Part shown: positions 14,193-43,438 of the stretch, piece after piece
Layout: each line of letters begins with the position of its first letter
Position numbering within the stretch: the stretch's first letter is position 1
Sequence record: NC_048170.1
DNA length: 64,000 nt
Source of the DNA: Escherichia phage vB_EcoM_Goslar
Strand: one strand, 5' to 3'
Notes under the pieces: generated by a model
The model's database searches: none
What the model saw: the letters and a program-made list of their open reading frames with translations, nothing else
What the model was told of the DNA's origin: nothing
Position numbers and translations under genes: made by a program

Positions 14193-14971
14193 GCGAGCGT
14201 TGCTCCTGCATCGTGTTGCGGATAGCGTAGCATGGTAGCATCCCATTGTACGATCCGGCTCCGGCTTACCCGCATCATGATGGATTCATCGTCAAGACCC
14301 GGCTGCGCAACCGGCAACCAACGTTCGTTAAGCACCTTCGCTTCAACGCGTTTCTTGCGGGGATTGTAACGCACCTCGCTAACCCAAGCGAATCCAAGCG
14401 GATGCACAACCCGCGGATAATACATGCGAAGCAATTGATGCATCCGATCTGTTACCTCCAAGCTCGCCTCCGCCATGTAAGGTTTCACCATGGTAAGCTT
14501 TTTGGTGTAATACGTTCCAACGGTATGGTTCGCCCACCCAGGAAGCGCGTGATGGAATCCTACCTGTAATTGTGTATTACCGTTCACCTTCAGCCATCCG
14601 TATTGTCCCGCTGCACGTCCCTCGTCGGTATCGATCCATGTAAGTATATCGATGAATGCATGATCGGTGATCTCGATGCGTTCCACCCGTTCATCCAACG
14701 CACCACGTACCACGAATCCGCTCGTGCTCATCCGTGCAGGATGCTGGCTGCGATGTGCGTACCAATTCTTGTTGCTGGTAAGCAGGTAAGGATACAAGTG
14801 TGCGCCACGCCAAACAACCTTTCCGTTCGTCCCGTCAACGCAGCGTACGCGCATCCCAGCCTGACCGCTGCTGTAGCATGCTACCTTCACGCATTCCGCT
14901 TGCACCGTTGTCGGTAACGCCAGGTATTCATCTTCGGTAAACATCGTATCAAAAATCAATGCTTCTTTCAT
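14189..14971 (-). CDS. hypothetical protein
   Basis: 260-aa ORF, SD AGAGGAA 9 nt upstream; first gene after the AT-rich non-coding island and promoter-like motif A. Confidence 0.5.
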   Translation of the reverse strand: MKEALIFDTMFTEDEYLALPTTVQAECVKVACYSSGQAGMRVRCVDGTNGKVVWRGAHLYPYLLTSNKNWYAHRSQHPARMSTSGFVVRGALDERVERIEITDHAFIDILTWIDTDEGRAAGQYGWLKVNGNTQLQVGFHHALPGWANHTVGTYYTKKLTMVKPYMAEASLEVTDRMHQLLRMYYPRVVHPLGFAWVSEVRYNPRKKRVEAKVLNERWLPVAQPGLDDESIMMRVSRSRIVQWDATMLRYPQHDAGATLA

Positions 14972-15052
14972 TTAAAAAGTTCCTCTGTTTCACGTTAATT
15001 AAACAACGTATTGATTTCTATTTGACAGAATACGAACAGTGTACGTATCTAT

Positions 15053-15076
15053 CATGAAGGTAATGTAGTCGTGAAA
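15053..15076 (-). promoter_or_regulatory. conserved promoter-like motif, copy A
   Basis: Minus-sense TTCACGACTACATTACCTTCATGA; one of four near-identical copies, about 80 nt upstream of the 14971 start. Confidence 0.45.
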
Positions 15077-15638
15077 GGATTTGTGTTACAGAAAGGGTTT
15101 TGTTTGTTTTAAGAAGGGATGGATTTAGAAGAGGTGTTTCAAGGAAGGTAAACGAGGATAGGTATTTTGATTTAAGTAAGCAAGTAAGATGTTATCTGTA
15201 TTTGTTAAAAGTGTATTGTCTATGTTATCTTGTTTATCTTAGGTTATGTCTTATTGTTCAATCGTTTTATCTTGGTATGTTTACGTTGTTTTTATTTATC
15301 TTAAATTAATTTAAAAGTAGATCAATAAGCTTATCTTCAAAACAATGGATAACATGTGTTTACTACCTTAACGGTAACACATGTCATCTGTGCATTACAC
15401 TACGTTACATGCTAGTTAAATCGGATAACTCAAAAAACCATTTGTGATACTCTTCTTCACGTTGTTCATCAGAGTATCTCGTCTATACTCATTGCATTCG
15501 TATACGACATAACCGTTATACGCTAACGCTACGCTTATAGCTTGATAACTCTAAGGATAAAAACATAAACTCGCTTCGCTCGTTTAGTTTTTCTTTTTCT
15601 TAGAGTTATCCTGTTGCTCGTCTCTAAAGGACTTCGCT

Positions 15639-15666
15639 CCTCCCCCGTCCCCCGAAGGGGCCGAGG
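15639..15666 (-). terminator. degenerate member of the stem-loop family (CCCC-CGAA-GGGG core)
   Basis: cctcccccgtcccccgaaggggccgagg inside the non-coding island. Confidence 0.3.
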
Positions 15667-15777
15667 TCGTGGAAATTTTACTTTCCAAATACATTTACAA
15701 CATCTGTAAACTTTTACTCCAGGTACTTAATCTTATCGTTAGAAATTATAAAAGAGAAGAATAAACACAAACATAAA

Positions 15778-15810
15778 CCTTCCTCCAACCCAACAGGGAA
15801 GGAGGAAGGG
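15778..15810 (-). terminator. conserved intergenic stem-loop terminator
   Basis: ccttcctcc-aa-ccc-aaca-ggg-aa-ggaggaagg directly after the stop of 15826..16719; minus-sense hairpin followed by UUUAUGUUUG. Confidence 0.6.
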
Positions 15811-15825
15811 AGAGCTTGATTTTAA

Positions 15826-16719
15826 TTAATCAGCAGTGTTATAACCGAATACTGCTTTACCGTAGGTGTGGGTACCGTTAGCTAATGACAGCACCAACAC
15901 ATGGTTGTACGTAGCGTTAACACCATTGTCGGTAGAACTGGTGGTAGCACCGTTATAGACAAAGGTAGCTGTTTGCAGATTGGCTTTCAGCTCGGTGATG
16001 ATCTCATCACTTACACCGGTCTGCTCTTTGATCAGCGTGGTCAGGTTACCTGCCAGGCTTTCATTGATCTTGGTTTCGTTATTGGTAATCCCCTGTAAAC
16101 CTGCAGTGTAGGTGCTGAAGTCTAACGGATAGGTTAACAGACGTGCTGACGTTTTGGTACCATCGCCTTCATCAACGTAGGTTAAGTTACCCAGGTTGGT
16201 AACCTTGATGATGTTAGCCAGATCCAGCGTAGTGTTATAAACTTTAACTTGAACAGAGCCATACCACGCCAACGAATCTTCTTTGGCTTCCAGGGTGATC
16301 GTCTGGATACCATGCTCGTTGAAGGTAACCGGATTAGATAACGTATCGGCTTTGATGTCTTTATCTTTATCCAGGAACTTCTCACCGGTCGGCGTGATCA
16401 TACCGTAGCGTTGAGCTACAAGGTCAACCACATCACCGATGGTGGTGTCAGCAGTAACGTTAACACGTACAGCGATTTTCTGGAACCACTTAGCCAGATC
16501 CAGACGATGGTAGGTAACATCGCGGTTATTGAAGTAAGGGGTACCTTCACCAGGGCTAAGCGTTAAAGTTGCGTCTGGAGCAGAATCACTTTTGGATTTA
16601 AGGACGTATTTAAGGTCGGTATATTTGAAGTTGGCACCAGTGTCAGTGTTGAGTTTGTTAATCTCATCAACGATAAGTTGCCAAGGTGTTTTTAAAGTAA
16701 GCGATACTTGAGTTGCCAT
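15826..16719 (-). CDS. virion-type protein, paralog family A (YxRxD and LAWxGSV motifs)
   Basis: Contains TYHRLDLAKWF and LAWYGSVQVKV shared with four other ORFs; optimal-codon-rich; SD GAGGT. Confidence 0.55.
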   Translation of the reverse strand: MATQVSLTLKTPWQLIVDEINKLNTDTGANFKYTDLKYVLKSKSDSAPDATLTLSPGEGTPYFNNRDVTYHRLDLAKWFQKIAVRVNVTADTTIGDVVDLVAQRYGMITPTGEKFLDKDKDIKADTLSNPVTFNEHGIQTITLEAKEDSLAWYGSVQVKVYNTTLDLANIIKVTNLGNLTYVDEGDGTKTSARLLTYPLDFSTYTAGLQGITNNETKINESLAGNLTTLIKEQTGVSDEIITELKANLQTATFVYNGATTSSTDNGVNATYNHVLVLSLANGTHTYGKAVFGYNTAD

Positions 16720-16861
16720 TTTCTACCTCTATGGTTGTTACATCACTCTCAAAAGATGTAAGTGTTTACAGAAATCAGTATATTTTATATTAATGTAAAT
16801 ATTATGGAGAACGACTCCGATTCTCCTTTTCGACCATCAAAAAATCAGAGGATACACAATC

Positions 16862-17404
16862 ATGGCCTTAGACTTTAACAAAGCAGCAAAATCCCTTCTG
16901 CTTGATCTTATCAACACCAAAGCAACCCGTTCACTGGCCGAACAAGAACTGCAGTTCGGTACTCCGGCGGCATCTTTCGAACATTCTAAGAACACCGTTA
17001 TTCAGCTGGACGCTGCGCCTGAAGCAGAAAACCTGCAGGGTACTCAGCAGTTCTACTACGATCGTCTGGCTCTGTCTGACGTTTTCGCTGATGTAACCGG
17101 CGATGTTACTTTCGAACTGCCGCACGGTACCGACAGCATTCAGGCTTCTGAACTGGTGAACAAACTGGTCACCAAATTCGGCCTGGCTTCACTGAACGGT
17201 GAAATCAAAGAAGAAACCTTCCAGCTGTCTGGAGGTACTGTTGGTCAGGTAACTCTGAATGCGATCGAGAACGGCCTGGTATATACCGGCACTCTGCAGG
17301 TTGCTCTGACCTATGCAGCAGCACCGAAAGACCAACTGGCAACCGTTCTGGCGGATAACGTAGCTGATGGCTTCGTGAAACCGACCGTTAGCGTTGTTGG
17401 CTAA
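16862..17404 (+). CDS. short paralog of family A, predicted highly expressed
   Basis: QFYYDRLALSDVF and LVYTGTLQVAL motifs; strongly optimised codons (CTG, CGT, ACC, GGT, GAA); SD GAGGA 9 nt upstream. Confidence 0.6.
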   Translation: MALDFNKAAKSLLLDLINTKATRSLAEQELQFGTPAASFEHSKNTVIQLDAAPEAENLQGTQQFYYDRLALSDVFADVTGDVTFELPHGTDSIQASELVNKLVTKFGLASLNGEIKEETFQLSGGTVGQVTLNAIENGLVYTGTLQVALTYAAAPKDQLATVLADNVADGFVKPTVSVVG

Positions 17405-17603
17405 TAAGCACATAGAGCAATAGTATGGGTTTTGTACAGCTCGGCTATTGCTCTTCTACAATTTGGTTGTAACAATCTGCGTGGTTGCACGCTTATCTTT
17501 CTCATTGAGCGCTTCGTATGAAGCGTGGTGTTGAAAGGGTTGTGGATCTCCTCAAGCGGCCAGGGACCCAGACCAACCTGAATAAACACAAACAAACCTT
17601 AAG

Positions 17604-17637
17604 CCCCTCCTCAGCCCTTATCGGGTTGGGGAGGGGT
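17604..17637 (+). terminator. conserved stem-loop terminator (plus-sense copy)
   Basis: cccctcc-tcagccc-ttat-cgggttg-gggagggg followed by cttatacgtctttatg; downstream of the 16862..17404 gene. Confidence 0.55.
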
Positions 17638-17699
17638 CTTATACGTCTTTATGCGTTTCGTTCGTTCTGGAGCGTTTTAGGGCGGTTTACGACAGGGTT

Positions 17700-18335
17700 T
17701 TATTCAACACTGAAACCATTCAAACAGATAGCTTCATAACGCTTACGTTCACGACGTTTACGCGCCTGCCAGCCGTAAATAAACTTCTCGTCTTTCTCAC
17801 GACGTTCAGCTAATTCGATGTAATAGGTGCTCTGCATATCCAGCATCGCATCGATGAGATAATCCTTACCGGTTGCGCCACGCTTAGCGATATAAGCATC
17901 AAGAGCCGCCAGTGTTTTGGGGCCCATTGCGCCATCAGCGTCGATATCTTTCCAGTAAGTTTGACGGTTGTTCATGACGTTCAGGTAACGCTGGAGGTTC
18001 TTAACCGCAACCGTTTTACCTGCATTGATACCCAGGTCAAAGAGACGGTCAGCTAAAAACACAGAACGTTTCATGACGTCATCAAGTTTCATTTTATCCC
18101 AGAAATGGGTCTTGTAGATAAAGAACGCCATTTCCGTGGTAAGGTTACGCATGTTACCGTTCCAGCCGAATTTCGTTTTCAGCGTGGTTTTGTATTGATC
18201 AGCAAGCGCTTGCGTAATGCCGTGGTTTGTACATTTTCCGCTGTCGTCTGGGTCATCAACATACCCGCCTTCAACATCGGTTTTGTCGCGAATGATGAAT
18301 TCGCAGGTAAAATCTTTTTCAGTAATCTTAGCCAT
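17700..18335 (-). CDS. endolysin, GH108-type lysozyme with peptidoglycan-binding domain
   Basis: N-terminal EFIIRDKTDVEGGYVDDPDDSGKCTNHGIT matches the GH108 catalytic region; C-terminal half consistent with a PG-binding domain; SD GAGGAG. Confidence 0.7.
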   Translation of the reverse strand: MAKITEKDFTCEFIIRDKTDVEGGYVDDPDDSGKCTNHGITQALADQYKTTLKTKFGWNGNMRNLTTEMAFFIYKTHFWDKMKLDDVMKRSVFLADRLFDLGINAGKTVAVKNLQRYLNVMNNRQTYWKDIDADGAMGPKTLAALDAYIAKRGATGKDYLIDAMLDMQSTYYIELAERREKDEKFIYGWQARKRRERKRYEAICLNGFSVE

Positions 18336-18461
18336 TAGAACTCCTCGTTGGAATAACGATTTAGAGGAACAGGAAGGGTCTAGAACGCGATAAACGATTT
18401 AATCCAGGCAAACCCCAGGTTAAACTTTTCGAAGCGTTACAACGCGTTCTAGAACGTTGAA

Positions 18462-20510
18462 TTAAATACCCTTGGTTCCTTTCACGTGATGTGCGATTTC
18501 TTCAACCATTGCACGCAGAGCACGAAGCTGTTGGTCGTGTTCGTACCAACCACCTAACAGAACCCCGCTATACACCATGGTGTCAAGACTTAACAGTCCT
18601 TTATCTGATACGTTGATCATTTCAGGGAACTGTTCTTGAACACGCTGTGCGATAACACCGATCTTCTCGACATCAGGATCGTAGTTGTGACGGAAACGGG
18701 CAAGCCCACTGCGCGCCATTTCACGTAAACGTTCACTGAGAGATTCCGGATGATCTTTCAGATAACGAATGTCGTGTTTACTACGTTCATCCGAGCGAAT
18801 GTAAGCGTTAGGAACATCGATATTGCTGTTGAAGTACAGCGCACTACCACCGCCTGCAGAGTTCCCCCAATAGAAGCGTGTGATCTCACCGCCGCCATTT
18901 TCCGTGATGATAACATGTTTACCTAAACGCGTACCACCATTACCATCAACGAAGACCAGTTTGTTTCCGCTGTAAGAACCCCAGAACAAGCGTGTATCGA
19001 TGATGTGTGTTGCAGCGAGACGGGCGTTACGTGGTGTAGAATACACGGTGTTAACATCTTGCTGCGCATGTGCATCGGAAGCGATACCATAGTTCTGTAC
19101 GTTACCCAATCCCACCTGCGCTTTCGTAACAGCGTGAGGGTTATCCCGACGGTTAGCGTGAGCGTTAACCAGATCACCCGCTAATTTCTGAATTGCCCAG
19201 TTGGTAGACTGTGGTGTCATGTAACGGTTCGTTGCAGAACCACCTTGCGCTTCAGCTTGGTTAGCGGTTGGGTAGTTCTCAACACTTCCTAACCCTACTT
19301 GTGCTTTAGACACTTGGTGTGGGTTATTCTTGTCAGCGATATGCGCATTAAGCGGAACTAACGCAAAGGTCTCAATGGACGCTTTGGTTGTGTTCGGTGC
19401 CATTAATCGGTTAGCTGCAACACCGGCACGCGCTTCTTCTTCAGAAGCCATTGGGTAGTCTTGCACATTCCCCAACCCAACCTGCGCTTTGGTTACCCTG
19501 TGTGGGTTGTTGTAATCGGCTTTATGCGCATTAAGTGGGATCAATGCGAACTGTTCAATCGATGCAGCGGTGCGTAGCGGCGTCATGAAACGGTTGTTCG
19601 CTGTTCCGGCTTTCGCCTCTTCATCCGAAGCGGTCGGGAAGTTATCAACGTTCCCAAGGTTAACCTGTGCTTTGGTGACGCTATGTGGGTTATCCCGACG
19701 GTTAGCATGCGCGTCGACCAGATCACCCGCCAGTTTAGCAATCGCCCAGCCAACCGTCTGTGCGGTCATGTAGCGGTCAGGTGCAGTACCGGCTTCTGCC
19801 TCCGCCTTGTTTGCGGTAGGATAGTTCTGTACGTTACCTAGTCCGACTTGGGCTTTTGTTACTTCGTGTGGGTTATCGGTACGGTTAGCATGCGCGTAAT
19901 GCAGATCGGTCAGATCTTTATCCGCCGCTTGCATGTCTTTGCGTAGCTGATCGATTGCCGCCCAGAGACGGTTATCGGACGCAGCATCACCGATAAGTAT
20001 TGCGGCTTTTAACGAATAGATCGCTAAGCAAAGATGTTCGGTACCGTAAATAGCACTAACGTGGTGGATGTGTGGCTCAGGCGGATAAAGTTCCGGTTTG
20101 TTCTTGATGTCATCCCAGTTGATCGGACGATCGTCAAGTTTGAGTTCTTCGATAGCCTGATATAACGCGTCAATAAGACTTACGTAAACACCACCGATGA
20201 TACGATAGTCGTTAACTAACGTCCCCTCGATATCATCGTTGATAATGGCGATGGCTGCACAGATTTCTTTACCCGCGTAAAGCGTTGCATCCTGGTACAA
20301 GAAAATGGGTTTATAATCCACGCCTCGTACCAGTGTCTTACCGGTAAGCTTTTCAGTGATGACCAGACTTTCGGTGAAGAACGGTCCGCCATCAAGGGCG
20401 TAACATTTATTCTCGGTTCGTGGAACGGTATGCTCTTCACCAACGATGTGGTTGCTGGCGAGTGTACCGGTCCAGTCCTCGGGGTACTTCAGGGTAATTG
20501 GTGTCGACAT
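18462..20510 (-). CDS. tail fibre protein with repeat array and C-terminal peptidase-S74 chaperone domain
   Basis: At least six repeats of NPHxVTKAQVGLGNVxNY (about 40-aa period); C-terminal ~110 aa contain S-D-E-R-S-K fitting the S-D-x-x-x-K self-cleavage site of S74 domains. Confidence 0.7.
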   Translation of the reverse strand: MSTPITLKYPEDWTGTLASNHIVGEEHTVPRTENKCYALDGGPFFTESLVITEKLTGKTLVRGVDYKPIFLYQDATLYAGKEICAAIAIINDDIEGTLVNDYRIIGGVYVSLIDALYQAIEELKLDDRPINWDDIKNKPELYPPEPHIHHVSAIYGTEHLCLAIYSLKAAILIGDAASDNRLWAAIDQLRKDMQAADKDLTDLHYAHANRTDNPHEVTKAQVGLGNVQNYPTANKAEAEAGTAPDRYMTAQTVGWAIAKLAGDLVDAHANRRDNPHSVTKAQVNLGNVDNFPTASDEEAKAGTANNRFMTPLRTAASIEQFALIPLNAHKADYNNPHRVTKAQVGLGNVQDYPMASEEEARAGVAANRLMAPNTTKASIETFALVPLNAHIADKNNPHQVSKAQVGLGSVENYPTANQAEAQGGSATNRYMTPQSTNWAIQKLAGDLVNAHANRRDNPHAVTKAQVGLGNVQNYGIASDAHAQQDVNTVYSTPRNARLAATHIIDTRLFWGSYSGNKLVFVDGNGGTRLGKHVIITENGGGEITRFYWGNSAGGGSALYFNSNIDVPNAYIRSDERSKHDIRYLKDHPESLSERLREMARSGLARFRHNYDPDVEKIGVIAQRVQEQFPEMINVSDKGLLSLDTMVYSGVLLGGWYEHDQQLRALRAMVEEIAHHVKGTKGI
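18465..18800 (-). other. predicted S74 self-cleaving chaperone domain (C-terminus of the fibre)
   Basis: YIRS|DERSKHDIRYL with Ser and Lys spaced as in the endosialidase/T5 pb1-type chaperone domain. Confidence 0.55.
19040..19880 (-). repeat. in-frame coding repeat array (about 120-nt units) in the fibre gene
   Basis: Six to seven consecutive copies of the NPHxVTKAQVGLGNV unit with flanking Ala/Gly-rich linkers. Confidence 0.6.
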
Positions 20511-20523
20511 AACCTGGAGGTCC

Positions 20524-23127
20524 TTATAACGTGACTGTACCTAATTTGGTTGTCTTATTGAGATTAATGACAGAGATCTGGGTATCGCTGGTCGTAATCG
20601 TTCCGATATTAACGCGCTGTCCTTTATCATCTTCTTGCTTGTAGATGGTTAACTCCAGCTCTAACTGATTACCATTAGGAACAACGGAAACGTACCATGT
20701 TTTATTACCTGGTGAACTATTATAGTCTTTTAGGTTATAATGGCCTTTAGGTAAGGTCATGACCTTACCGGCAAACAAGCAAGTGATGTCTTCGTTGATG
20801 TAGATATCGTAACCGGAAGCAGCAACGACCGTAGAAACCATGTAACGGTTTTTAACAGCGAGAGCTTTATATTCCGCAACGGAATTACCGACAGCGTTAA
20901 AGACCTGCCCGCCATTACCCATCACCGTAGAGACTGCGGTATCAACATAACCGATTCCCCACACCGGATGCACGTTCCAGCGATAGCCGCTTGTCTGTAG
21001 GTAAGCATACATACCTTCAAATGCGATGGTTGTCCAGTTCCCATCGTTTTGTCGTCCAGCTCGGAACTGATAGGTGTTCTGGTTCCCTGCAGACTGACGG
21101 GAGTACGGAACATGTCCCGCAACAAGCCATCCATCACTAACCTTCTTGTAAGCTAATACACCCCAGGCAGCATCCTGACTACCGATATTTGTTGAATCGG
21201 GTTCTTCGACATAACCCAGCAATTTGGTTACGCCCGTCACCGTAATAGCGCCTTTACGCGCGGATACGGTAACCTCTGCAGCGATTCGTCCATGTACGCG
21301 TGTGCTGGTATTACAGCCAGCAACAAACAGGATACAGGGTGCGTTTGTACCATCTGGAGGCACTGCTAACGCATGTCGCCACTGACTTACCCCTGATAAC
21401 TTAGATCCTGTATATGCGTTCCACACAAGCTGACCGCCTGCCTGCAGATTCGCTGCGGTTATGCTGATGGCTTCACCGGATGGTGCAAGTTTGGTTGCAT
21501 CGTAACCGATTTTGCTTGTTAGGACCGCATCGGTTAAATAAGACCCGCTAACCACCGTATTGTCATCGCTTAAATGCACGGTTAGGAAAGGTAACGACAT
21601 TTGACCCGTTCTAACCACCACGTTGTTGGAAGGCGGAAAACCGTAAACATTAATACCCTCGCCCTGATAATGGTAATTGAGGTTCCAGTCATAGGTCACT
21701 AGACGAGCCTCAAAATTACCCTGTCCGCCAGCCGTACGCGAGTTAACAAAAACCTTGTTCTTAGAAAAGAAACCCAGGTAACCATGGGACGCGAGTGCAC
21801 CAACGACGCGATCCCCGACGCTTTTCCAGTTTGAATCGTACTGTCTTCCACCGGTCGGGCCGAGTTTGGCGAGTTCGTCGAACACGTTTCCAGAGAAACC
21901 ATTGATGGTGTACGATCTCGCTTGGGGGGCGGATAAGTTGTCGTTTTGGATAAGGGCTACCTGACCACGTTCGTTGATTTCGATATTCCCGGTACCGTTA
22001 CCCGAACCCCATTGCCAGAAACCATCGTTATATGCACTTGTCCCCTCCGTTGTGTTGGAAGGTCCTATCCAGTCAATACCGCTGCTGGTTGACGTGTAAG
22101 TCGATTGTCCAGCGCCTGGGTTCATGCTGTAACTGTTGTTGGCGGTTTCGAAATCCAGATAAAACTGATGCAGCCCATTTTTATTCTTGTTATTGCGGTT
22201 GTTCGTCCACCACGCCGAAGCAATCAGAATGCGTGCTTTAGTGCCTTTGGTTGCTGCAAGCAGACGAATCTGGGCACGCCAGACGATTTGACCGATCCCG
22301 TCAGAAGGGAAATCGTTCGCAGTTATGCGGTTGCAGACAATCATCTCGGCGCTGTTGCTTATTGCCGTTCCTTCTATCGTTCTACCGCTAATATTCGTAA
22401 GCTGTGTAGCTGCTACGCTGCCACCGCTGGGACCGATGGAAGATTTAGTTACGGTATAAACATTTAAGTAGAGTTTATAACTGTTAGTGCCAGCAATAGC
22501 GATGTAGATTTTACCGTTAATTTCCCAACAGCAGACATTCGGTGACGTATCAACAAAGTTGGCAAGACTACCATCGAGATACATGGCGACGTGTTTGGAT
22601 GCATCAAACGTTCCGTCTGTCAATGCGATAAACATTTTAGGGCTGCTACCGTCTTCAAAAGCAGCTTGACCTAACATGATACCGTTCTGGTGACAGTATA
22701 TCGCCGTAGGAATACGGTCGAGCGTCGCGGGTTCATAACGACGACTGGTTGGGATAACTTCGGTGATTTGCCCGTTTTGATCTGTTTTACAGATAACGTA
22801 GTAAACCCCTTTCTTTACGCTGTTTGTTGCTGAACGCAATAACACGATGGTACCGTCCGATTCACGACATACGCCGTAACGACGGTATCTGTCGTTTAGG
22901 GAGATAGCACCATCAGCGGAGCCTTCAATTGCCAGAGGAAAATAACTTTGGTCCCCAACCTGTTCGATATCGGTTACGCCAATATCGATGTATTTTTCCA
23001 TCTCGGCGTTGAACTCAGCGGTACTGTAGGCCCCAAGATCACTCGCTTTTAGTCCCGTTGGGTTGTCGCGACTGGCGATACGCGTAGTAACGCTACTCAC
23101 CAGTTCGCTGAACTTTTTCATTGCCAT
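20524..23127 (-). CDS. tail fibre or tail spike protein (receptor-binding candidate)
   Basis: 867-aa ORF inside the fibre module, Gly/Ser/Thr/Asn-rich beta-type composition; SD GAGGTG. Confidence 0.45.
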   Translation of the reverse strand: MAMKKFSELVSSVTTRIASRDNPTGLKASDLGAYSTAEFNAEMEKYIDIGVTDIEQVGDQSYFPLAIEGSADGAISLNDRYRRYGVCRESDGTIVLLRSATNSVKKGVYYVICKTDQNGQITEVIPTSRRYEPATLDRIPTAIYCHQNGIMLGQAAFEDGSSPKMFIALTDGTFDASKHVAMYLDGSLANFVDTSPNVCCWEINGKIYIAIAGTNSYKLYLNVYTVTKSSIGPSGGSVAATQLTNISGRTIEGTAISNSAEMIVCNRITANDFPSDGIGQIVWRAQIRLLAATKGTKARILIASAWWTNNRNNKNKNGLHQFYLDFETANNSYSMNPGAGQSTYTSTSSGIDWIGPSNTTEGTSAYNDGFWQWGSGNGTGNIEINERGQVALIQNDNLSAPQARSYTINGFSGNVFDELAKLGPTGGRQYDSNWKSVGDRVVGALASHGYLGFFSKNKVFVNSRTAGGQGNFEARLVTYDWNLNYHYQGEGINVYGFPPSNNVVVRTGQMSLPFLTVHLSDDNTVVSGSYLTDAVLTSKIGYDATKLAPSGEAISITAANLQAGGQLVWNAYTGSKLSGVSQWRHALAVPPDGTNAPCILFVAGCNTSTRVHGRIAAEVTVSARKGAITVTGVTKLLGYVEEPDSTNIGSQDAAWGVLAYKKVSDGWLVAGHVPYSRQSAGNQNTYQFRAGRQNDGNWTTIAFEGMYAYLQTSGYRWNVHPVWGIGYVDTAVSTVMGNGGQVFNAVGNSVAEYKALAVKNRYMVSTVVAASGYDIYINEDITCLFAGKVMTLPKGHYNLKDYNSSPGNKTWYVSVVPNGNQLELELTIYKQEDDKGQRVNIGTITTSDTQISVINLNKTTKLGTVTL

Positions 23128-23139
23128 TATTCACCTCGA

Positions 23140-23625
23140 TTAAATAGGCGAGTCGGGTAGCTGACCATCATCGATCTCGATGGTGGCCACCTTACGTGTT
23201 GCAGCAAGATGTGATGTACCCTGGATTTTGTTCCAGGTGCCGATACGCATGGCGTTTTTGTAGCTACTATCGCTATCGTTCAGCGTGTAAACAAAACCGC
23301 TATCGGTTACGGCAAGATAGATCCAGCCCACAGACTCACTGATACCAGACACATCCAAAGTCGTTGCTGGTACTGTCCCTACCACCGTGTTGTATTCCGC
23401 TGTACCTTGACCAATGCTGATCCGCCCGTTGCTGTAACTGGCTGCCGGAAGCGTTTTATTTCGACTGAAGAAAAGAAACGGAAGGTAACGCTGGGTAACA
23501 AGCGGTGCAAGTTTAGGAGCCACTTCGGTCTTAACGTAGACATCTGTTTGTTCTGGCGTTACCTCGTGAGGGTTCTTTTGGGTAAGATACGTCCCCCATT
23601 CAGAAAGCAGTGTTGATAGCTTCAT
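23140..23625 (-). CDS. small fibre-associated protein (single fibre-repeat unit)
   Basis: N-terminus LTQKNPHEVTPEQTDVYVK resembles one unit of the fibre repeat. Confidence 0.45.
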   Translation of the reverse strand: MKLSTLLSEWGTYLTQKNPHEVTPEQTDVYVKTEVAPKLAPLVTQRYLPFLFFSRNKTLPAASYSNGRISIGQGTAEYNTVVGTVPATTLDVSGISESVGWIYLAVTDSGFVYTLNDSDSSYKNAMRIGTWNKIQGTSHLAATRKVATIEIDDGQLPDSPI

Positions 23626-23629
23626 GCGG

Positions 23630-24139
23630 TTACCCCATGTAACGTTTTTGGCCGAGGATGAAGACTTTGTTGAATACCACCGAAGTGATTCCTGTTGCGT
23701 TACAGCTCACCTGCCCGACGCGAATTGCTGTTGACGTATCGACCCCAGCACTACTCTGCCAGATCCAATCGATCGATCCGTCTTTCTGACGAATGAAAAG
23801 ATAACCGGTTTTGTTCGCCCAGTCGGAAGTAAGTTTTTTGATGTCTAGCGTTCCTTTCGCCAGAATATAGTCGGTACCGGCGATCATGACGGGTATTTCA
23901 GGATACGAGATTACCGTACCGCTGGCAGTAACGTTGCTGATGCGTTCGCTACGAATATCGGTACAGTCACCGAAATACGCTACGGGGAGTATCCCCTTAG
24001 GGAGCTTTTTGCCGATTCTCGTATCGATCGTGTTTTTATCGGGTGCGCCGATTTGTGCTGCGGTGACTTGGTTAGGGTTATCCTTCCTTGTGTACCAAGT
24101 CGTCATGCGAGCACCTAATTCACTCATTTTTGTGCCCAT
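23630..24139 (-). CDS. small fibre-associated protein (single fibre-repeat unit)
   Basis: N-terminus RKDNPNQVTAAQIGAPDKN; track start is GTG, ATG at 24137-24139 has SD TAGGA. Confidence 0.45.
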   Translation of the reverse strand: MGTKMSELGARMTTWYTRKDNPNQVTAAQIGAPDKNTIDTRIGKKLPKGILPVAYFGDCTDIRSERISNVTASGTVISYPEIPVMIAGTDYILAKGTLDIKKLTSDWANKTGYLFIRQKDGSIDWIWQSSAGVDTSTAIRVGQVSCNATGITSVVFNKVFILGQKRYMG

Positions 24140-24196
24140 TTTCACGTCCTATCGAAAAATAAAAAGAAGGAAAGGTGGGTAGAACCCACCCATCCG

Positions 24197-26350
24197 TTAT
24201 AACGTTTCGAAGTCGGTTGCTTTGATAACCGCGTTGAAGTTGGCAAGGAATTCCTTAAGCAGTGCTTGGAAGACATCACGAAACGCTGTGTTCGTCTGCA
24301 AGCTGGTTAAATAATCGTTCTTAAGGTAATCGCTCAGCTTACCGATCTTCTGCATCTTCTCGCCGTCTTGGTTCTCTCCAGGTTCTTGGCTGTTGATGTT
24401 AACCCATTTGATCCCTTCGAGATCGCCATCGGCAAGGAAGTTGGCGGGTGTCTCATCGTCGTTCAGGATTTTAATCGTATCACTGGATTCAATGCCACCG
24501 TAAGCTTCCAGAAGCTGGTTGACTGTTAGCTTATTGGTGTTGATTGAACCATTGACACCATCGATACCGATGCCTGCACCTGTGATGGATGTCGCCGAAA
24601 GATCGATCGGTCCGGTTAACTTACCACCGTTGATCGGTAACGCACCAACTTGCTCAGCGGTGTGTGTATGGTCAGCTAACGCCGCAAACGCCACGATAGA
24701 CTTATATGTCGAATACGGCGTCATATACGCTGATTGGTTGGTGTTGTCAGCCGCTTCAGTATCGGTAGCGATATTAAAGTTCTGCACGTTGCTGAGACCG
24801 ACCTGCACCTTCGTTACTTCATGCGGGTTGTTCTTATTGACAACGTGTGCTGCAAAACCATCACCAGCTAAAGCAGTGATTGCCGCTTTTGTCGCAGCCG
24901 GTGTCATATAGCGGTTGGTTGCTTCACCCGTTTGCGCCTCTTCGTCGGAAGCAACAGGATAGTTCTCAACGCTTCCCAAACCGACCTGAGATTTTGTTAC
25001 TTGGTGTGGGTTTTCGGTATTCGCAATATGACTACTGAACCCTTGACCCGCCAGTTGCTCGATTGCGTAACGAACAAGTATTGGTGTCATGTACTTGTTG
25101 TTAACTTGACCATCGATAGCTTCTTGGGTGGTGGCAACCCCGAAGTTTTGCACGCTCCCCAACCCAACTTGCGCTTTCGTAACAGCGTGGGGGTTATTGG
25201 TGTTACCGATGTGATCGGTAACCGTTGGGGTGATTAATCCTGCGATAGCGGCTGCCGTGGTCGCAGGGGTCATGTATTTATCGTTAGCAACACCCGCAGC
25301 AGCTTCTACGTTAGATGCTACACCGTAGTTCAATACATTTCCTAACCCAACCTGCGCCTTGGTTACCCCGTGGGGGTTGTTCTTGTCTCCGGTATGGGTT
25401 GTCAACGTAGCGTTAACGTTATCGATACGCGTGCTTAAGCTATCAGTGATTGCTTTGATTGCGGCTCGTACACCCGCTGGTGTTGTGTACAGATCTGTGG
25501 CCGTACCGGTAATGGTTGTATTACTATCGGCTACACCGTAGTTCTCAACGTTTCCGAGTCCCACCTGGGCTTTCGTTACCTTGTGTGGGTTGTTGTAGTT
25601 GCTGATGTGCGCAGCAGCACTATCACCACTCAGGTTAGCGATCATCTTACGCGTCATCGCCAACGTCATGTACAGATTTTCACCGATGGTTTCCAGATCG
25701 CTCTCGGTCGCCGTTGTGAAGTTCTGAACATTTCCTAACCCAACCTGCGCCTTGGTTACCCCGTGGGGGTTATCGCGACGATTCTCGTGCTGCAGCAATG
25801 CAGTCATTGCTTTATTGAACCCTTCTTCAAGCGGTTCTTTCAATGATTCGATTGCAGCCACCACATCGTCCCACGTCATTGTGTCGGTTTCGACATTATG
25901 TTGGTGGTTGATTGGCGGGAATACGGAAGGAACGTCAGCAACCTTTTCCCAGAACGTAACGCGAGGGTCGTAAAGGTTGTTGGCTAAAACGTTAAGAATT
26001 TGTTGTTGATCAAGTGTAAACTCACCCCCCAGTGAATAGTAGTTCAGTTGCAACTGTCCACTGAATGCGGTGTCCAACAGCATGATGGAACCGTATAATT
26101 CCAGGCCGGTCAGCGCAGCCATGGCACGGAAGGGGTGAGTGCATAAAAAGTCAACGCCTTCTTCCAGATACGCGTTTGTTTCAGGGTTGTAGATCTTTAA
26201 CCCATTGCGAAAATATGGCGCGTATTTAGGAACGAGAAAGTTAAATCCGGTCCCCGTGGAAGGACGGACAGTGACGAGTTCTTCTGGAACCCATGCGCCA
26301 TCCAAATTCCCCTGCGGGTTATACGGAAGGCGTTTAATTTCATCTGTCAT
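24197..26350 (-). CDS. tail fibre protein with repeat array
   Basis: At least eight repeats of NPHxVTKAQVGLGNVxN between residues ~190 and 540; C-terminal domain differs from the S74-containing fibre. Confidence 0.65.
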   Translation of the reverse strand: MTDEIKRLPYNPQGNLDGAWVPEELVTVRPSTGTGFNFLVPKYAPYFRNGLKIYNPETNAYLEEGVDFLCTHPFRAMAALTGLELYGSIMLLDTAFSGQLQLNYYSLGGEFTLDQQQILNVLANNLYDPRVTFWEKVADVPSVFPPINHQHNVETDTMTWDDVVAAIESLKEPLEEGFNKAMTALLQHENRRDNPHGVTKAQVGLGNVQNFTTATESDLETIGENLYMTLAMTRKMIANLSGDSAAAHISNYNNPHKVTKAQVGLGNVENYGVADSNTTITGTATDLYTTPAGVRAAIKAITDSLSTRIDNVNATLTTHTGDKNNPHGVTKAQVGLGNVLNYGVASNVEAAAGVANDKYMTPATTAAAIAGLITPTVTDHIGNTNNPHAVTKAQVGLGSVQNFGVATTQEAIDGQVNNKYMTPILVRYAIEQLAGQGFSSHIANTENPHQVTKSQVGLGSVENYPVASDEEAQTGEATNRYMTPAATKAAITALAGDGFAAHVVNKNNPHEVTKVQVGLSNVQNFNIATDTEAADNTNQSAYMTPYSTYKSIVAFAALADHTHTAEQVGALPINGGKLTGPIDLSATSITGAGIGIDGVNGSINTNKLTVNQLLEAYGGIESSDTIKILNDDETPANFLADGDLEGIKWVNINSQEPGENQDGEKMQKIGKLSDYLKNDYLTSLQTNTAFRDVFQALLKEFLANFNAVIKATDFETL
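24730..25780 (-). repeat. in-frame coding repeat array in the second fibre gene
   Basis: Same repeat family as 19040..19880. Confidence 0.6.
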
Positions 26351-26381
26351 GATGCGCCCTTTACAAGTTGTTAGTAAGTAT

Positions 26382-26400
26382 GGGATACCCTGGGGTATCC
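26382..26400. promoter_or_regulatory. palindromic operator-like site in a divergent intergenic region
   Basis: GGATACC-ctgg-GGTATCC between the divergent starts at 26350 and 26455. Confidence 0.3.
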
Positions 26401-26454
26401 TGTGTTAACAGCGGTAAAATATTACTGTAACTATAAAATAAGGGGGCCTCTCCC

Positions 26455-27735
26455 ATGTATACATTGGTAAAAACTTACGGGTTACCCGTAGGTTCTGGCA
26501 CGGCCTGGACAGCGCTTGAGGCGGGTGAAAGTGTCCTGAGTACGTTGTTCTCAACGTATCAAAAACTCAAGATCCAGGTCCACGAAAGCTATGCTGACCA
26601 GCAACAAGTTATTGATCTGTACACATTTCAATCCGAGCTTCAAAACAGCAGCGATACGCTCAATGCGTGGTTGAAAGCGAAATCGGATGCGCATACCAAC
26701 CTTCGAGGACAGCCTGGCGAGCTGTCGATTAAAACCCACAAGCTTTATTGTCACGACGCTATTACTGTAGGCTTTCTCCCTAAAGTCGGTAATAGTGGCT
26801 ATCATCCGAGCAACGCGATCCCTGAGTCGGAACGCACTGATATCCTGTTGACGAAAGCGAATACGAATTACGAAAATATCGGCAAACACTGCTTGTTCAC
26901 CGTAGGCGGTTATGTTCATCCTCACGTCTACGGTAAAGACGTCGGTGTCTATATCCAGGGTGGGTTCAAGACGGCACAGCGCAGCCAAGAAAACGATATC
27001 GGCATGATTGATTTTAGCCGTATCGGGAGTTTGGAAATCCATGCTATCACAGAAGAGATGATTGCTGATTCCACGAAGCTCTTGCCGTATAAGGACGAGA
27101 TGTACTTGCGGTTACCGCGCAAGGTCGCCGAAGATGAAACCGTCGCGCTGGTGTTCGGGGGATATTTACATCTTCTTGACGATTGTTACACGATCGTTAG
27201 CGACACGACAGCGAAAATAAACTGCATTAACATGTTTCTCTATGAACGGTACTTCCGTTCCCGTAAATACCTTGATCTAACATCTCTTGGTATTCTGTTG
27301 AACGAAGAAGACCCACAGTCCGACATTGTTGCCAATCGTTTATTGTCCGATAAAGCATTAAAAGCGTGGGTGACGCATCCTTGCAGTTTCTGGGTGTATA
27401 TCAAAGCAACATCAATTCAGGTTACGCAAGAACCTTTACCACGAAGCGGTGTACCGGGACAGTATTTCTTAGGTAAGAAACCGGAAGGATTGATTCGGGC
27501 CGATCTCGGTGAGTTACCCGCTTACGTGCAGACCTATGAAAAACCGTTATGGGTACTTCACTCGCGCTGGGGACTTCGTAAGAACATGTTGTTTGAAAAT
27601 ACGTTGTACAAACATACGCGCGTTAAGCGACTTAACGATACGCCTTATCTTCACCAGGTCTGGTTGGAAACGCATGCGACGTTGCAGACAGTACACAAGC
27701 TCGAATTGATCGATTCCAGTCAGAAAAACAAATAA
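26455..27735 (+). CDS. hypothetical protein (divergent from the fibre gene)
   Basis: 426-aa ORF, ATG with AAGGGGG SD; upstream TATAAAATA-containing AT-rich stretch. Confidence 0.5.
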   Translation: MYTLVKTYGLPVGSGTAWTALEAGESVLSTLFSTYQKLKIQVHESYADQQQVIDLYTFQSELQNSSDTLNAWLKAKSDAHTNLRGQPGELSIKTHKLYCHDAITVGFLPKVGNSGYHPSNAIPESERTDILLTKANTNYENIGKHCLFTVGGYVHPHVYGKDVGVYIQGGFKTAQRSQENDIGMIDFSRIGSLEIHAITEEMIADSTKLLPYKDEMYLRLPRKVAEDETVALVFGGYLHLLDDCYTIVSDTTAKINCINMFLYERYFRSRKYLDLTSLGILLNEEDPQSDIVANRLLSDKALKAWVTHPCSFWVYIKATSIQVTQEPLPRSGVPGQYFLGKKPEGLIRADLGELPAYVQTYEKPLWVLHSRWGLRKNMLFENTLYKHTRVKRLNDTPYLHQVWLETHATLQTVHKLELIDSSQKNK

Positions 27736-27745
27736 CCAAACATAA

Positions 27746-27777
27746 CCCTCCTCCAACCCGTAAGGGAAGGAGGAGGG
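27746..27777 (-). terminator. conserved intergenic stem-loop terminator
   Basis: ccctcctcc-aa-ccc-gtaa-ggg-aa-ggaggaggg; minus-sense hairpin followed by UUAUGUUUGG; sits between convergent genes. Confidence 0.6.
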
Positions 27778-27786
27778 AATATGCTG

Positions 27787-28692
27787 TTATGCTACATATA
27801 ACGTCAGATAACCGTCGATGAGCGTATTCATCACACTGAGCTGAAGTACGACAGCTTTACTAACATCTGTACGTACACCGAACGGTAGTGTTTTGAATTG
27901 CTCTGGATCGGCTATTACTTGCGCATTCTGCAAGTTGAGCGGTCCAGGCATTGCTGATAATACCCAGCGATCGTTGACCATAAGGCCGTCGATCTCTTCA
28001 GAGAGACCCAATTGCAGTGCGTTCATTTCTGCGATTAGTGCCTCCGATTGCGTATCGCCTGAGGTTAGCGTATACCCATCGGTAAGCGATGCCAGAACAC
28101 CAGCAGATACGAACCAGTTGTACGAAACAATAGCGCCTGGGAGTTTACTGCTATCTCGATCGATGATATAATTCAACCCAGCCAACATATTGTTGCGAAC
28201 GAGGTTGTTGAGGTCGTTATGTCCTGAGGTTAACTCAACAAGTAACTGACCAACCCATACTTGGTTACCGGGTTTAGGTGTTATCACAACCTGTATCGGT
28301 GACTTGGATTTATCCAGATCCGCGTCGACAATCTCGGTTTTGTTGAGAAGGATACCGTACGTCGATGCTAAGACAGGTAGGATCTCAGAGACCTTGGTTA
28401 GTGCATCTAAGGTTTCGATCTCGATAGGCCAGCGGTGCTGTCCGCCAGACCAAGTACCTAGTTTACCAAGATCGATGCGGTTATAATAGATGTCGACAGA
28501 GTTCACCAGCCCTGAACCCGGTTGGGGATGCACGGTTAACTTGCTGTTACGCTTGTACCCGGTGCTTTCAGAAGCCTCACCGATAACCAGTTTATCCAGC
28601 GTTACGCCTCGAGCATCGAAATCGCTATGCTTTCGAATCAGCCGAAAGAGGATTTCTTTCGATTCTAACCCTAGGATTTCACTGTACTCCAT
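27787..28692 (-). CDS. virion-type protein, paralog family A
   Basis: IYYNRIDLGKLGTW motif and overall similarity to 29609 and 30471 ORFs; SD AAGGGG. Confidence 0.5.
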   Translation of the reverse strand: MEYSEILGLESKEILFRLIRKHSDFDARGVTLDKLVIGEASESTGYKRNSKLTVHPQPGSGLVNSVDIYYNRIDLGKLGTWSGGQHRWPIEIETLDALTKVSEILPVLASTYGILLNKTEIVDADLDKSKSPIQVVITPKPGNQVWVGQLLVELTSGHNDLNNLVRNNMLAGLNYIIDRDSSKLPGAIVSYNWFVSAGVLASLTDGYTLTSGDTQSEALIAEMNALQLGLSEEIDGLMVNDRWVLSAMPGPLNLQNAQVIADPEQFKTLPFGVRTDVSKAVVLQLSVMNTLIDGYLTLYVA

Positions 28693-28707
28693 TTAACACC
28701 CCTTAGG

Positions 28708-29592
28708 TTACGGTAGGATTTCTGCGCCCGTCGGGCCTGCCTTACGAGCTTCCAACGCACCAAGGTCGTATTTCAGTGTCAGCGTATCGTTGGTAGTATA
28801 AAGGTTGTGGTAAGTCGAAATCAGATCGGTAACCTGCGCGCCGACGATTTCGTTCATGTCGAAGGCCGAACCTTGACCATCATCAGCACGAACGATTTTA
28901 TCGCCAGCAGAGACCATCCCGATTTCAGAAATAACCGCGTACTCTTCACCACCTTCGGTGAGTTTAGCCACATTGAGATATTCGTTAATATCCCACGGCG
29001 TCCAAACCAAAGAGACTTTACAGCTGTAGTCGTAGTACTCTCCGGTCGCTACCAGAATTCCGGTTGTTGGGATATCCGGTCGGGTGGGGTTGAGGTTCTT
29101 GTCGGTTGGGTGCCATTCGATGGTCTGAGCGACGCCGTCGACGTATTTGGTATAACGCATGGAGCGGACAACGTTATCGAAATCGATGCGACGACCGTAA
29201 TAACAGATATACTTTTTACCGCTTTCCAGTGTCTCAATACGACGTAACCCAAATTTAGCGCGTTCGTCTGTGGTCAAATCGTTACCAACTTCACGCATCA
29301 CGAACGGCTTGATTTTCCACGGTGAAAGATCGCTTGCTTCGTGAGCGATCGGCATCGAGGAAGGGATACCGTTAGCGTTGCGGATGAATTCATGACCTTG
29401 GTTGCCGATACAGAAGTAACGTACAGCAGGATTACCCTCGGGGTAAACCTTTGATTGAATCTGAAGCTTTTCATTCAAGGTGCTGTGTTCTTCCCATGCA
29501 TGAGGAAGACCGAGCGTAAGGTTAGTTTGTACTTGACCGCCGATAATCGTACGGACGATACGATCGGTAGCACGGATTTGTGTAGAAGCCAT
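28708..29592 (-). CDS. hypothetical structural-type protein
   Basis: 294-aa ORF embedded between family A paralogs; SD AGGAAAAG. Confidence 0.45.
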   Translation of the reverse strand: MASTQIRATDRIVRTIIGGQVQTNLTLGLPHAWEEHSTLNEKLQIQSKVYPEGNPAVRYFCIGNQGHEFIRNANGIPSSMPIAHEASDLSPWKIKPFVMREVGNDLTTDERAKFGLRRIETLESGKKYICYYGRRIDFDNVVRSMRYTKYVDGVAQTIEWHPTDKNLNPTRPDIPTTGILVATGEYYDYSCKVSLVWTPWDINEYLNVAKLTEGGEEYAVISEIGMVSAGDKIVRADDGQGSAFDMNEIVGAQVTDLISTYHNLYTTNDTLTLKYDLGALEARKAGPTGAEILP

Positions 29593-29608
29593 GTCTTTTC
29601 CTATTTAA

Positions 29609-30460
29609 TCAGTTATATTGCATCAACAGGATACCGCCGTAGTTCGTGCAGTAATCTTGGCTAAGCGTAACGATAACAGCGTTAGCGAACGCAGGGTTAA
29701 CAGGATAACCCTGTGCGATAAGTTCTGTTGTTTTACCGGTTGCAAGCACGGTGGCTCCGTAAAGGTTGTTTTCGTCTTCACGGCCGTTATAAACCCATGG
29801 GGTTGGCGCAACGTTGTTGAATAAGCTAACCAATGCGCTTAAGTTGCCACCAACTTTTAACCCGGCGAGATCGGAACGGATAGCTGTACAGTCTATAGCG
29901 TAACTGTAGACCAATGCCTGGATACGATTTGCGGTGTAGTACGGGAAATTGAGACCGGTCATCACCGTGGACTTCATCATCCCCGCAATATCGCGTGCGC
30001 TATCGAGGAGGTAGAACGTGACACTTCCCGTCCAAGCCAATCCGGTTGTTTTCAACTCTACGGTGTGAGGGAACGGATATTCATCACCTCGTACAATCGG
30101 AGAATCGACGCAGCTATCCTGATCGATAACGATTCCGTACGTTGATTGAATCAGAGGGATAAGATCGTGCGTTGTTCTAACCCCGGCATCGATAGCAAGC
30201 TTCGGTTCCATTCCCAAGAAGAAGTCTTGAATAGGGATACGATCGTACCATACGTAGCTGCTTTCACGGTATTGTGCCGGTGTTACTGTTGCCGAAGGGG
30301 ATACCTTAGCGCGAGTGTTTCGGCTATACGCGTGGTTTCCGTTTTCAGCAACATCCGTGATATCAAGTGCATCGAAGTTAAAGTCGAAGTCAGGATTGGC
30401 TGCCTGAATAAGTTCAGCGACCAGTACTTTAGGACTTTTGTTTAACAATTTCTGACTCAT
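29609..30460 (-). CDS. virion-type protein, paralog family A
   Basis: YVWYDRIPIQDFFLG, LAWTGSVTFYLLDS, C-terminal DYCTNYGGILLMQYN; SD AAGGAA. Confidence 0.5.
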   Translation of the reverse strand: MSQKLLNKSPKVLVAELIQAANPDFDFNFDALDITDVAENGNHAYSRNTRAKVSPSATVTPAQYRESSYVWYDRIPIQDFFLGMEPKLAIDAGVRTTHDLIPLIQSTYGIVIDQDSCVDSPIVRGDEYPFPHTVELKTTGLAWTGSVTFYLLDSARDIAGMMKSTVMTGLNFPYYTANRIQALVYSYAIDCTAIRSDLAGLKVGGNLSALVSLFNNVAPTPWVYNGREDENNLYGATVLATGKTTELIAQGYPVNPAFANAVIVTLSQDYCTNYGGILLMQYN

Positions 30461-30470
30461 TGTTTATTCC

Positions 30471-31406
30471 TTAGCCTTGTTCTTCTGGAGAACGACCCTG
30501 GAGGCTTGCGGTATGTCCGTCGACGTTGTAATAGAAAATCAATGGACCGCCGACGGCAGTACAGTAGTTTTCATCCAGACCGATCTCGATACCGTATTGG
30601 TAACCCGCTCGTGCTGGAATACGTCCGCCTAACTCGCCGTTGAAAGCCACTTTAGCGTTATACAGGTTATACGGTGCTGCGTTGTCGTCTAATACCCAAC
30701 GATCGGCGGTCATTTCAGCCAGAAGATCGGCGACCACCACATCGCTAATGACGGTACCTGTTACCAGCGAAGCTAGCAACTCACCGTAATCAGAAGTATC
30801 GCGACTGTAACTGTAGATCTCACCGCTAGCGCGTACGCCCTGTCCGAAGAACTTAAGACCATCAAGCTCTTTGATCGCGATAATATCATCAAGATTCGGT
30901 ACACGCGATTTCATCAAGATACGAACACTTCCCGTCCAAGCCAGGCAGCTAGATACGACACGGAGCAATTGTCCGTTAACGGTATCCCAGTTAAGTTCGT
31001 CGTTGACAATTTCTTCCGCGGTAAGGCCAAGACCGAAACGTTCTTTGATGATAGGCCAGATATCACGCATCTTGGTGGCGTCTGGCGCATCGATAAGAAT
31101 AGGCGCTACGTTACGCAGATACGCACCGATATTGATACGATCGTAATACAGCGTCGTCGAACCTTCATAATCGTCTAACTCGGTAAGCTTAGCGGTTGCT
31201 GTCGCCGTAATCTGGGTGTCGCGCTCGTAGGCGCTTTGGTTGGTGGTTGGTGTTCCTAAAACCAATAATTCAGGGGTTAGAACATGCTCTCCGTTCTGAG
31301 GTGGGTTATCGTGGTTGATAAGACCATACACGAGATCGGATGAGGGTAAAGAGACGTCGACCGGGTAAAGTTCGGTGTCGTCAATAGTTGTTACCGTATC
31401 ACTCAC
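30471..31406 (-). CDS. virion-type protein, paralog family A
   Basis: TLYYDRINIGAYL, LAWTGSVRILMKS, C-terminal ENYCTAVGGPLIFYYN; track start is GTG without SD, second GTG at 31404-31406 has GGAGG 6 nt upstream. Confidence 0.5.
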   Translation of the reverse strand: MSDTVTTIDDTELYPVDVSLPSSDLVYGLINHDNPPQNGEHVLTPELLVLGTPTTNQSAYERDTQITATATAKLTELDDYEGSTTLYYDRINIGAYLRNVAPILIDAPDATKMRDIWPIIKERFGLGLTAEEIVNDELNWDTVNGQLLRVVSSCLAWTGSVRILMKSRVPNLDDIIAIKELDGLKFFGQGVRASGEIYSYSRDTSDYGELLASLVTGTVISDVVVADLLAEMTADRWVLDDNAAPYNLYNAKVAFNGELGGRIPARAGYQYGIEIGLDENYCTAVGGPLIFYYNVDGHTASLQGRSPEEQG

Positions 31407-31465
31407 GGTGACCTCCACGCCAGGAATTAATTAAAAAAGACTTTACGATTTGCAGCGCTATCACG

Positions 31466-33877: not shown

Positions 33878-33904
33878 GATCGGTCCTCCAAGGAGCCAGT
33901 GTAA

Positions 33905-43339: not shown

Positions 43340-43438
43340 CTGACTTATGTATCACGGTGCCGGATGAATGTCCGGTGCAATGAAACCATCTGCAACGTTG
43401 TCATCAAGAATATCATCCAACGAAGCAGCTACGGTAGT

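Follow-up and report, generated by a model that had tools for sequence, protein, structure and literature searches.

Five DUF7941 paralogs on either side of the fibre genes of Escherichia phage vB_EcoM_Goslar, candidate subunits of baseplate-associated filaments

The stretch of DNA analysed here (the window) comprises 64,000 nucleotides of Escherichia phage vB_EcoM_Goslar, a jumbo phage (sequence record NC_048170.1; genome length 237,307 bp), and it matches the Goslar proteins exactly. We focus on five of its open reading frames (ORFs), which a sequence-only reading of this DNA had proposed to be paralogs lying on both sides of a group of fibre genes. At the left are gp22 (Goslar_00022; 15826–16719, minus strand), which encodes a protein of 297 residues with 100% identity to its database counterpart, and gp23 (Goslar_00023; 16862–17404, plus strand), which is transcribed divergently from it and encodes a protein of 180 residues. 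At the right are three minus-strand genes, gp31 (Goslar_00031; 27787–28692, 301 residues), gp33 (Goslar_00033; 29609–30460, 283 residues) and gp34 (Goslar_00034; 30471–31406, 311 residues), and the products of these and of gp23 are exact matches to the database sequences. The proteins gp22, gp31, gp33 and gp34 are full-length members of the DUF7941 family, gp34 having short N- and C-terminal extensions, and gp23 is a short form. For gp34 a GTG at 31418 is possible as an earlier start, but since the database protein has 311 residues the ATG at 31406 is the right one.

DUF7941 (PF25613) is a chimallivirus-specific family to which all five proteins belong. Relative to a curated gathering score of 27 bits (profile length 276), the Pfam search gives 178.5 bits for gp22, 72.0 for gp23, 191.9 for gp31, 161.6 for gp33 and 215.0 for gp34, in agreement with the precomputed PF25613 annotation of the database copies, and each of the five also matches PHROG 1037/2935, 'virion structural protein'. 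When the proteins are compared all against all by BLASTP in a six-sequence database, gp22, gp31, gp33 and gp34 share 21–26% pairwise identity, with E values from 1e-8 to 4e-18. The pairwise similarity of gp23 to the others is weak (best E = 1e-4), so that it is assigned to the family by its profile and fold matches; it aligns to positions 4–174 of the 276 only, and through this truncation it lacks the C-terminal signature block. Profile, fold and synteny together confirm that the five ORFs form a true paralog family, as had been read from the raw sequence.

The motifs on which that reading was built hold to different extents. Y-x-R is present in all five proteins (as TYHRL, YYDRL, YYNRI, WYDRI and YYDRI) and is kept across the family, but LAW(T/Y)GSV is exact in only three, the remaining two having LVYTGTL and QVWVGQL, and a literal YCT in the proposed C-terminal block is found only in gp33 and gp34, with a looser ending, G......YN, common to gp22, gp33 and gp34. 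Residues Y70, R72 and G154 (gp22 numbering) are invariant across the five paralogs. When 180 domain instances, drawn from about 150 distant representatives, are aligned, the Tyr is conserved in 94%, the Arg in 99%, the Gly of LAWxG in 92% and the C-terminal Gly in 96%. The family is large; a library clustered at 50% identity contains 2277 representatives of it at E <= 1e-3. In a phage collection that does not include Goslar, a megablast of 15000–32000 gives no match, and translated searches (tblastn) reach best identities of only 25–42%, to jumbo phages of Erwinia, Klebsiella, Burkholderia, Salmonella and Pseudomonas. No sixth DUF7941 member is revealed in any of the six frames of the window by a profile of the five paralogs, and the fibre proteins gp25, gp26 and gp29 contain no DUF7941 module. 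A possible sixth paralog, the ORF at 28708–29592 (gp32), which lies among the right-hand genes, was rejected because it is a DUF7208 protein with no similarity to the five.

AlphaFold2 (AF2) models show how the long and short forms are organized. In gp22 (predicted local distance difference test score, pLDDT, 87.8; predicted template modelling score, pTM, 0.55) an N-terminal domain (residues 8–165) is joined by a linker (166–190, pLDDT 66–71) to a C-terminal domain (191–297), and gp23 (pLDDT 91.1, pTM 0.77) consists of an N-terminal domain (1–151) and a 30-residue tail, with no C-terminal domain; the tail, which spans 152–180, has a pLDDT of 82–90 in the monomer model though it is coil. The fold of the N-terminal domain agrees with that of the solved phiKZ gp127 (PDB 9XQD). 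A profile of the five paralogs matches exactly one solved chain (9xqd_0, PHIKZ127, E = 8e-16), the gp23 model matches the same chain in Foldseek with E = 1e-7 and a template modelling (TM) score of 0.73, and structure searches with the AF2 models yield no fold relative above noise besides the phiKZ gp127 N-terminal domain.

Conservation extends beyond the globular parts. The linker has 0.98 bits per column, compared to 1.08 and 0.89 in the globular domains, and in four orthologues with N-terminal domains 44–47% identical to that of Goslar gp23, the core of its tail (158–175, QLATVLADNVADGFVKPT) is 83–89% identical; this conservation, together with the pLDDT of the tail, suggests that the tail is a docking element. 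Many DUF7941 relatives among the top 150 matches carry tandem N-terminal modules, two to three per chain, for example P0224 (341 residues, with modules at 1–166 and 171–312) and likewise P0279, with three copies each in P0212 and P0200, and P0208 and P0286 have the C-terminal sub-domain twice. Covalent fusions of this kind would be expected if the modules normally align head to tail. Both the tandem fusions and the tail conservation point to specific mutants with which the mechanism of polymerization could be tested.

The family is closely associated with the baseplate genes, its members being interleaved with homologues of the phiKZ baseplate proteins gp139, gp128 and gp130. Goslar gp32 (Goslar_00032; 28708–29592, minus strand) is a peripheral-baseplate spoke protein of the DUF7208 family (PF23838, 325 bits) with 34.6% identity to phiKZ gp139 (PHIKZ139; tblastn, E = 3e-42), and the spoke role of gp32/gp139 is assigned in the cryo-electron microscopy (cryo-EM) papers on both Goslar (bioRxiv 10.64898/2026.04.21.720040) and phiKZ (PMC13250141). 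To the right of gp34 is gp35 (31466–33946, minus strand), an inner baseplate (wedge) protein sharing 34.9% identity with phiKZ gp128 (BLASTP, E = 6e-119), and to the left of gp31 is gp30 (26455–27735, plus strand; phrog_3337), sharing 24.8% identity (BLASTP, E = 9e-27) with phiKZ gp130, which forms part of the 'star lobe' of the peripheral baseplate (PMC13250141). In phiKZ the gp139 band begins at the wedge protein gp128, whose contact is the first gp139 dimer, and is terminated by gp127, which sits in the outer peripheral baseplate and is the only one of the DUF7941 relatives placed in density (PDB 9XQD; PMC13250141). Goslar gp32, although unrelated to the five, corresponds to the structure that their relative gp127 caps in phiKZ.

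The arrangement is also shared with other phages. The Goslar order gp35-gp34-gp33-gp32-gp31 is the same as gp7-gp8-gp9-gp10(DUF7208)-gp11 in Erwinia phage RAY (Agricanvirus), a phage of a different genus; RAY gp8 is 33% identical to gp34 (E = 1e-40), RAY gp9 is the best RAY match of gp33 (26% identity, E = 1.6e-21), and RAY gp11 is closer by BLAST to gp22 than to its positional counterpart gp31. A short DUF7941 form adjoins the endolysin gene in phiKZ (gp143–gp144), and likewise in a metagenomic relative with only 51% identity to Goslar in gp22. Because gene order is conserved in RAY, phiKZ and the metagenomic relative, the duplications are ancient. The proposal that these proteins are tail or baseplate components diversified by duplication is borne out by the location of phiKZ gp127, the neighbouring homologues of gp139, gp128 and gp130, and the RAY synteny, and all five paralogs have been detected by mass spectrometry in Goslar virions (bioRxiv 10.64898/2026.04.21.720040).

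The codon usage of the five genes differs greatly. The codon adaptation index (CAI) was calculated for every ORF in the window from the Sharp and Li relative adaptiveness values for E. coli, and the window median is 0.294, with a median effective number of codons (Nc) of 51. With a CAI of 0.659 and an Nc of 34.5, gp23 ranks second among the 53 ORFs of at least 100 residues, and gp22 (CAI 0.467, Nc 42.8) ranks fourth; gp31, gp33 and gp34 are ordinary (CAI 0.24–0.32, Nc 48–56), such that the order is gp23 > gp22 > gp34 ~ gp33 > gp31 (0.242). The strongly host-optimal codons that the sequence-only reading had ascribed to both members of the divergent pair are therefore found in gp23, but gp22 is only moderately optimized. 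Only two reading frames have a higher CAI than gp23. The first is the major capsid protein gene gp41 (Goslar_00041; 43439–45661, minus strand), with a CAI of 0.743 and an Nc of 30.2, the 740-residue product of which is an exact sequence match; the second, which has the window maximum (CAI 0.757, Nc 30.1), is a C-terminal fragment at the end of the window (63769–63999) that is identified by gene order as gp58, a dominant 'inner body' protein (PF12699). The endolysin gene gp24 has the third-highest CAI (0.482) of the complete ORFs.

These values can be compared with the published composition of the virion. Median label-free mass spectrometry estimates for Goslar virions give copy numbers of about 2144 for gp23, 577 for gp22, 112 for gp33, 27 for gp34 and 8.5 for gp31, with 2151 for gp58 and about 76 for the gp24 endolysin in virion preparations (Table S4, bioRxiv 10.64898/2026.04.21.720040); the capsid protein is estimated at 1030 copies, with 1615 in the structural model (bioRxiv 10.64898/2026.04.21.720040). 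By these estimates there are more than 2500 DUF7941 subunits per Goslar virion, exceeding the capsid protein. Among the 32 genes of the window for which a copy number is given, CAI is correlated with log10 copies (r = 0.78, p = 2e-7), and Nc with copies (Spearman -0.70), and the high copy number in the virion that had been predicted from codons agrees strongly with the numbers for gp23 and moderately with those for gp22. Family, high copy number and tail or baseplate placement had all been recovered from raw sequence, and all are matched by independent cryo-EM and proteomics.

The finding of a DUF7941 family in this same genome is already known. A preprint of 22 April 2026 reports the structure and proteome of the Goslar virion and lists ten DUF7941 members, gp22, gp23, gp31, gp33, gp34, gp86, gp91, gp92, gp93 and gp161, of which gp86, gp91–93 and gp161 are located beyond this window (bioRxiv 10.64898/2026.04.21.720040). 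In its description gp22 and gp23 are paralogs of high copy number with the domain architecture given above (N-terminal domain, linker and C-terminal domain in the long form). It also reports AlphaFold3 head-to-tail dimers, finds by negative stain that purified gp22 forms filaments in vitro, fits a phiKZ gp126–gp127 heterodimer into unexplained peripheral-baseplate density, and from these results puts forward a 'fiber cloud', in which flexible filaments would serve host recognition (bioRxiv 10.64898/2026.04.21.720040). New here are the quantification of codon usage, the tandem-module fusions in relatives, the conservation of the linker and the gp23 tail, and the caveat, developed below, that polymers can contaminate virion preparations.

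Taking these observations together, we favour as the likely explanation that DUF7941 subunits build flexible filaments rooted at the six gp32 spoke tips of the peripheral baseplate. The low-copy proteins gp31, gp34 and gp33, encoded beside gp32, would probably be the baseplate-proximal anchors or adaptors, and gp31, with about 8.5 copies and thus close to six, is a candidate for an anchor present once per spoke. The codon-optimized divergent pair would be the source of the bulk subunits, with gp23 likely to be the main filament subunit. Because sugar-binding, hydrolase or leucine-rich repeat (LRR) domains are found in DUF7941 proteins encoded elsewhere in the genome, we propose that the filaments could give the virion a larger capture radius for host cells. 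Such filaments may constitute a micron-scale device for host capture, which would be unusual for a tailed phage, although the idea is already published.

Several observations weigh against this explanation. First, no DUF7941 density is resolved in the 7.9 Å map of the Goslar peripheral baseplate (bioRxiv 10.64898/2026.04.21.720040), and the attachment in Goslar is therefore an extrapolation from phiKZ, in which a single gp127 N-terminal domain is modelled per star lobe (PMC13250141); gp22 and gp23 themselves are directly seen in no map, and the baseplate would be their presumptive site. Secondly, PhuZ and chimallin are also present in the caesium chloride-purified virion preparation, at about 171 and 126 'copies', respectively (bioRxiv 10.64898/2026.04.21.720040), and since these are non-virion polymers, a self-assembling gp22/gp23 polymer might just co-purify. 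Thirdly, the gp23 tail core is 67% identical in P0101 and 44% in P0108, the latter being no higher than the identity of the domain. Lastly, gp22 lacks the Trp of an R-W-V motif that is kept in 94% of DUF7941 C-terminal domains, including those of gp31, gp33 and gp34, as a result of a small deletion near residues 235–240; its C-terminal domain is atypical and may behave differently from the canonical one.

The strongest alternative, which we regard as unlikely, is that gp22 and gp23 are highly expressed, self-polymerizing late proteins that are unattached to virions and co-purify with them, either as free filaments or as an intracellular or extracellular matrix that could, for example, organize late assembly, leaving only gp31, gp33 and gp34 as baseplate parts. 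The absence of gp22/gp23 density from every Goslar map and the ability of gp22 to polymerize alone in vitro (bioRxiv 10.64898/2026.04.21.720040) would both fit this explanation, as would the more than 100 'copies' each of PhuZ and chimallin, the location of gp22 and gp23 apart from the gp31–gp34 baseplate block, and their status as sequence outliers in the family (gp22 without the conserved Trp, gp23 with weak pairwise similarity). However, they are at least as abundant as the major capsid protein, far over the contaminant level, and the N-terminal domain and tail motifs that they have in common with the baseplate paralogs would permit docking. Moreover, a short DUF7941 gene lies beside endolysin and fibre genes both in phiKZ (gp143, a 'structural protein') and in a distant metagenomic relative, and many chimalliviruses have homologues with the annotation of virion structural protein.

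A further pair of readings goes beyond the 'fiber cloud' of the preprint, and we judge it improbable that one or other of them is correct. Either gp31, at about six per virion, and the gp34 and gp33 adaptors nucleate a shaft composed mostly of gp23, through the gp23 C-terminal peptide at about residues 158–175, or gp22 and gp23 form an intracellular or inter-virion matrix that co-purifies with the particles. If the first were true, the hierarchically assembled heteropolymer would be a virus-encoded, chaperone-free analogue of the polymerization of pilus-type subunits; if the second, the gp22/gp23 polymer would not be an organelle for receptor search.

A role for gp23 as the tail tube protein, or for the family as tube, sheath or capsid-decoration proteins, is suggested by the small size and very high abundance of gp23 and by its automatic UniRef name, but is refuted by published maps and can be given almost no weight. 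In the cryo-EM structure the tube is formed by gp217 and the sheath by gp218, and the complete models of capsid, neck and tail contain no DUF7941 protein (bioRxiv 10.64898/2026.04.21.720040); the paralogs have no tube or sheath match in Pfam or PHROGs and no tube-like structural neighbour was found, and 2144 copies of gp23 are far above the 276 tube subunits. We consider the UniRef label 'Tail tube protein' to be a misannotation, as gp217 is the tube and gp23 is without a tube-like fold. Finally, the notion that the five ORFs are unrelated and share motifs by coincidence, for which one might point to pairwise identities of only 21–26% and a best E value for gp23 of 1e-4 in a tiny database, is already refuted by the 72–215 bit profile scores, the common predicted fold matching the same solved structure, and the family-wide retention of the motifs.

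Comparison with other systems helps to place the filaments that we favour. The phiKZ proteins gp127, gp126 and gp143 share about 20–25% identity with the Goslar DUF7941 proteins, the match of gp143 to the five-paralog profile being marginal (E = 0.014). The family numbers about three proteins in phiKZ and ten in Goslar, two of the latter being present at hundreds to thousands of copies. By analogy only, the logic proposed here is that of chaperone-usher pili, which assemble by donor-strand exchange: each subunit pairs a small domain with a terminal peptide that binds or completes its neighbour, and there are low-copy anchor and tip subunits and one high-copy shaft subunit. Unlike these pili, however, DUF7941 proteins have neither a chaperone nor an usher, and they have no sequence or fold relationship to pilus subunits.

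The two groups of paralogs are separated by a module transcribed on the minus strand (17700–26350) that contains the endolysin gene gp24, the fibre genes gp25 and gp29, and gp26, gp27 and gp28. The fibre proteins gp25 and gp29 have phiKZ gp131-like N-termini and repeats. The endolysin gp24 (17700–18335) contains GH108 and PG_binding_3 domains. In phiKZ the endolysin, gp144, belongs to the neck 'whisker ring' as a structural component, and gp24 may therefore also be virion-borne. Goslar gp36 matches the phiKZ portal protein gp129. A plus-strand ORF of 636 residues (43364–45274) lies antisense to the capsid gene gp41, and is most likely a shadow ORF arising from the extreme codon bias of gp41 and not a gene.

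The surroundings of gp22 and gp23 have several features of their own. The intergenic region between them (16720–16861) is 142 nt long and very AT-rich. A scan for sigma-70 promoters around the two genes gives matches no commoner than those in shuffled sequence; these phages use their own RNA polymerases. A hairpin followed by a T-rich tract (CCTTCCTCC...GGAGGAAGG; 15778–15809) is present 3' of gp22 on the minus strand, and another (CCCCTCC...GGGGAGGGG; 17603–17638) is about 200 nt downstream of gp23; these are probable terminators bracketing the highly expressed divergent pair. Between gp21 and gp22 there is an ORF-free gap of about 850 nt (14972–15825), in which the sole ORF is AT-rich, encodes 69 residues and has a CAI of 0.10. 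The gap contains hairpins with 20-nt arms (15544–15563/15591–15610) and 13-nt arms (15348–15360/15376–15388), as well as a G+C-rich element near 15640–15665, and in the equivalent place the relative L003, with 51% identity in gp22, has an ORF of 151 residues. Scans of the whole window at the Rfam gathering threshold, and of 14900–17750 in E-value mode, identify no Rfam family, and no tRNA was found in the scans.

We also note that near-identical Goslar-like contigs of 235–248 kb are present in many NCBI and ENA assemblies labelled as isolates of Salmonella enterica, E. coli (including O157) and Shigella flexneri, which suggests that Goslar-like phages are often carried in cultures of clinical and food isolates, in a carrier state or by pseudolysogeny.

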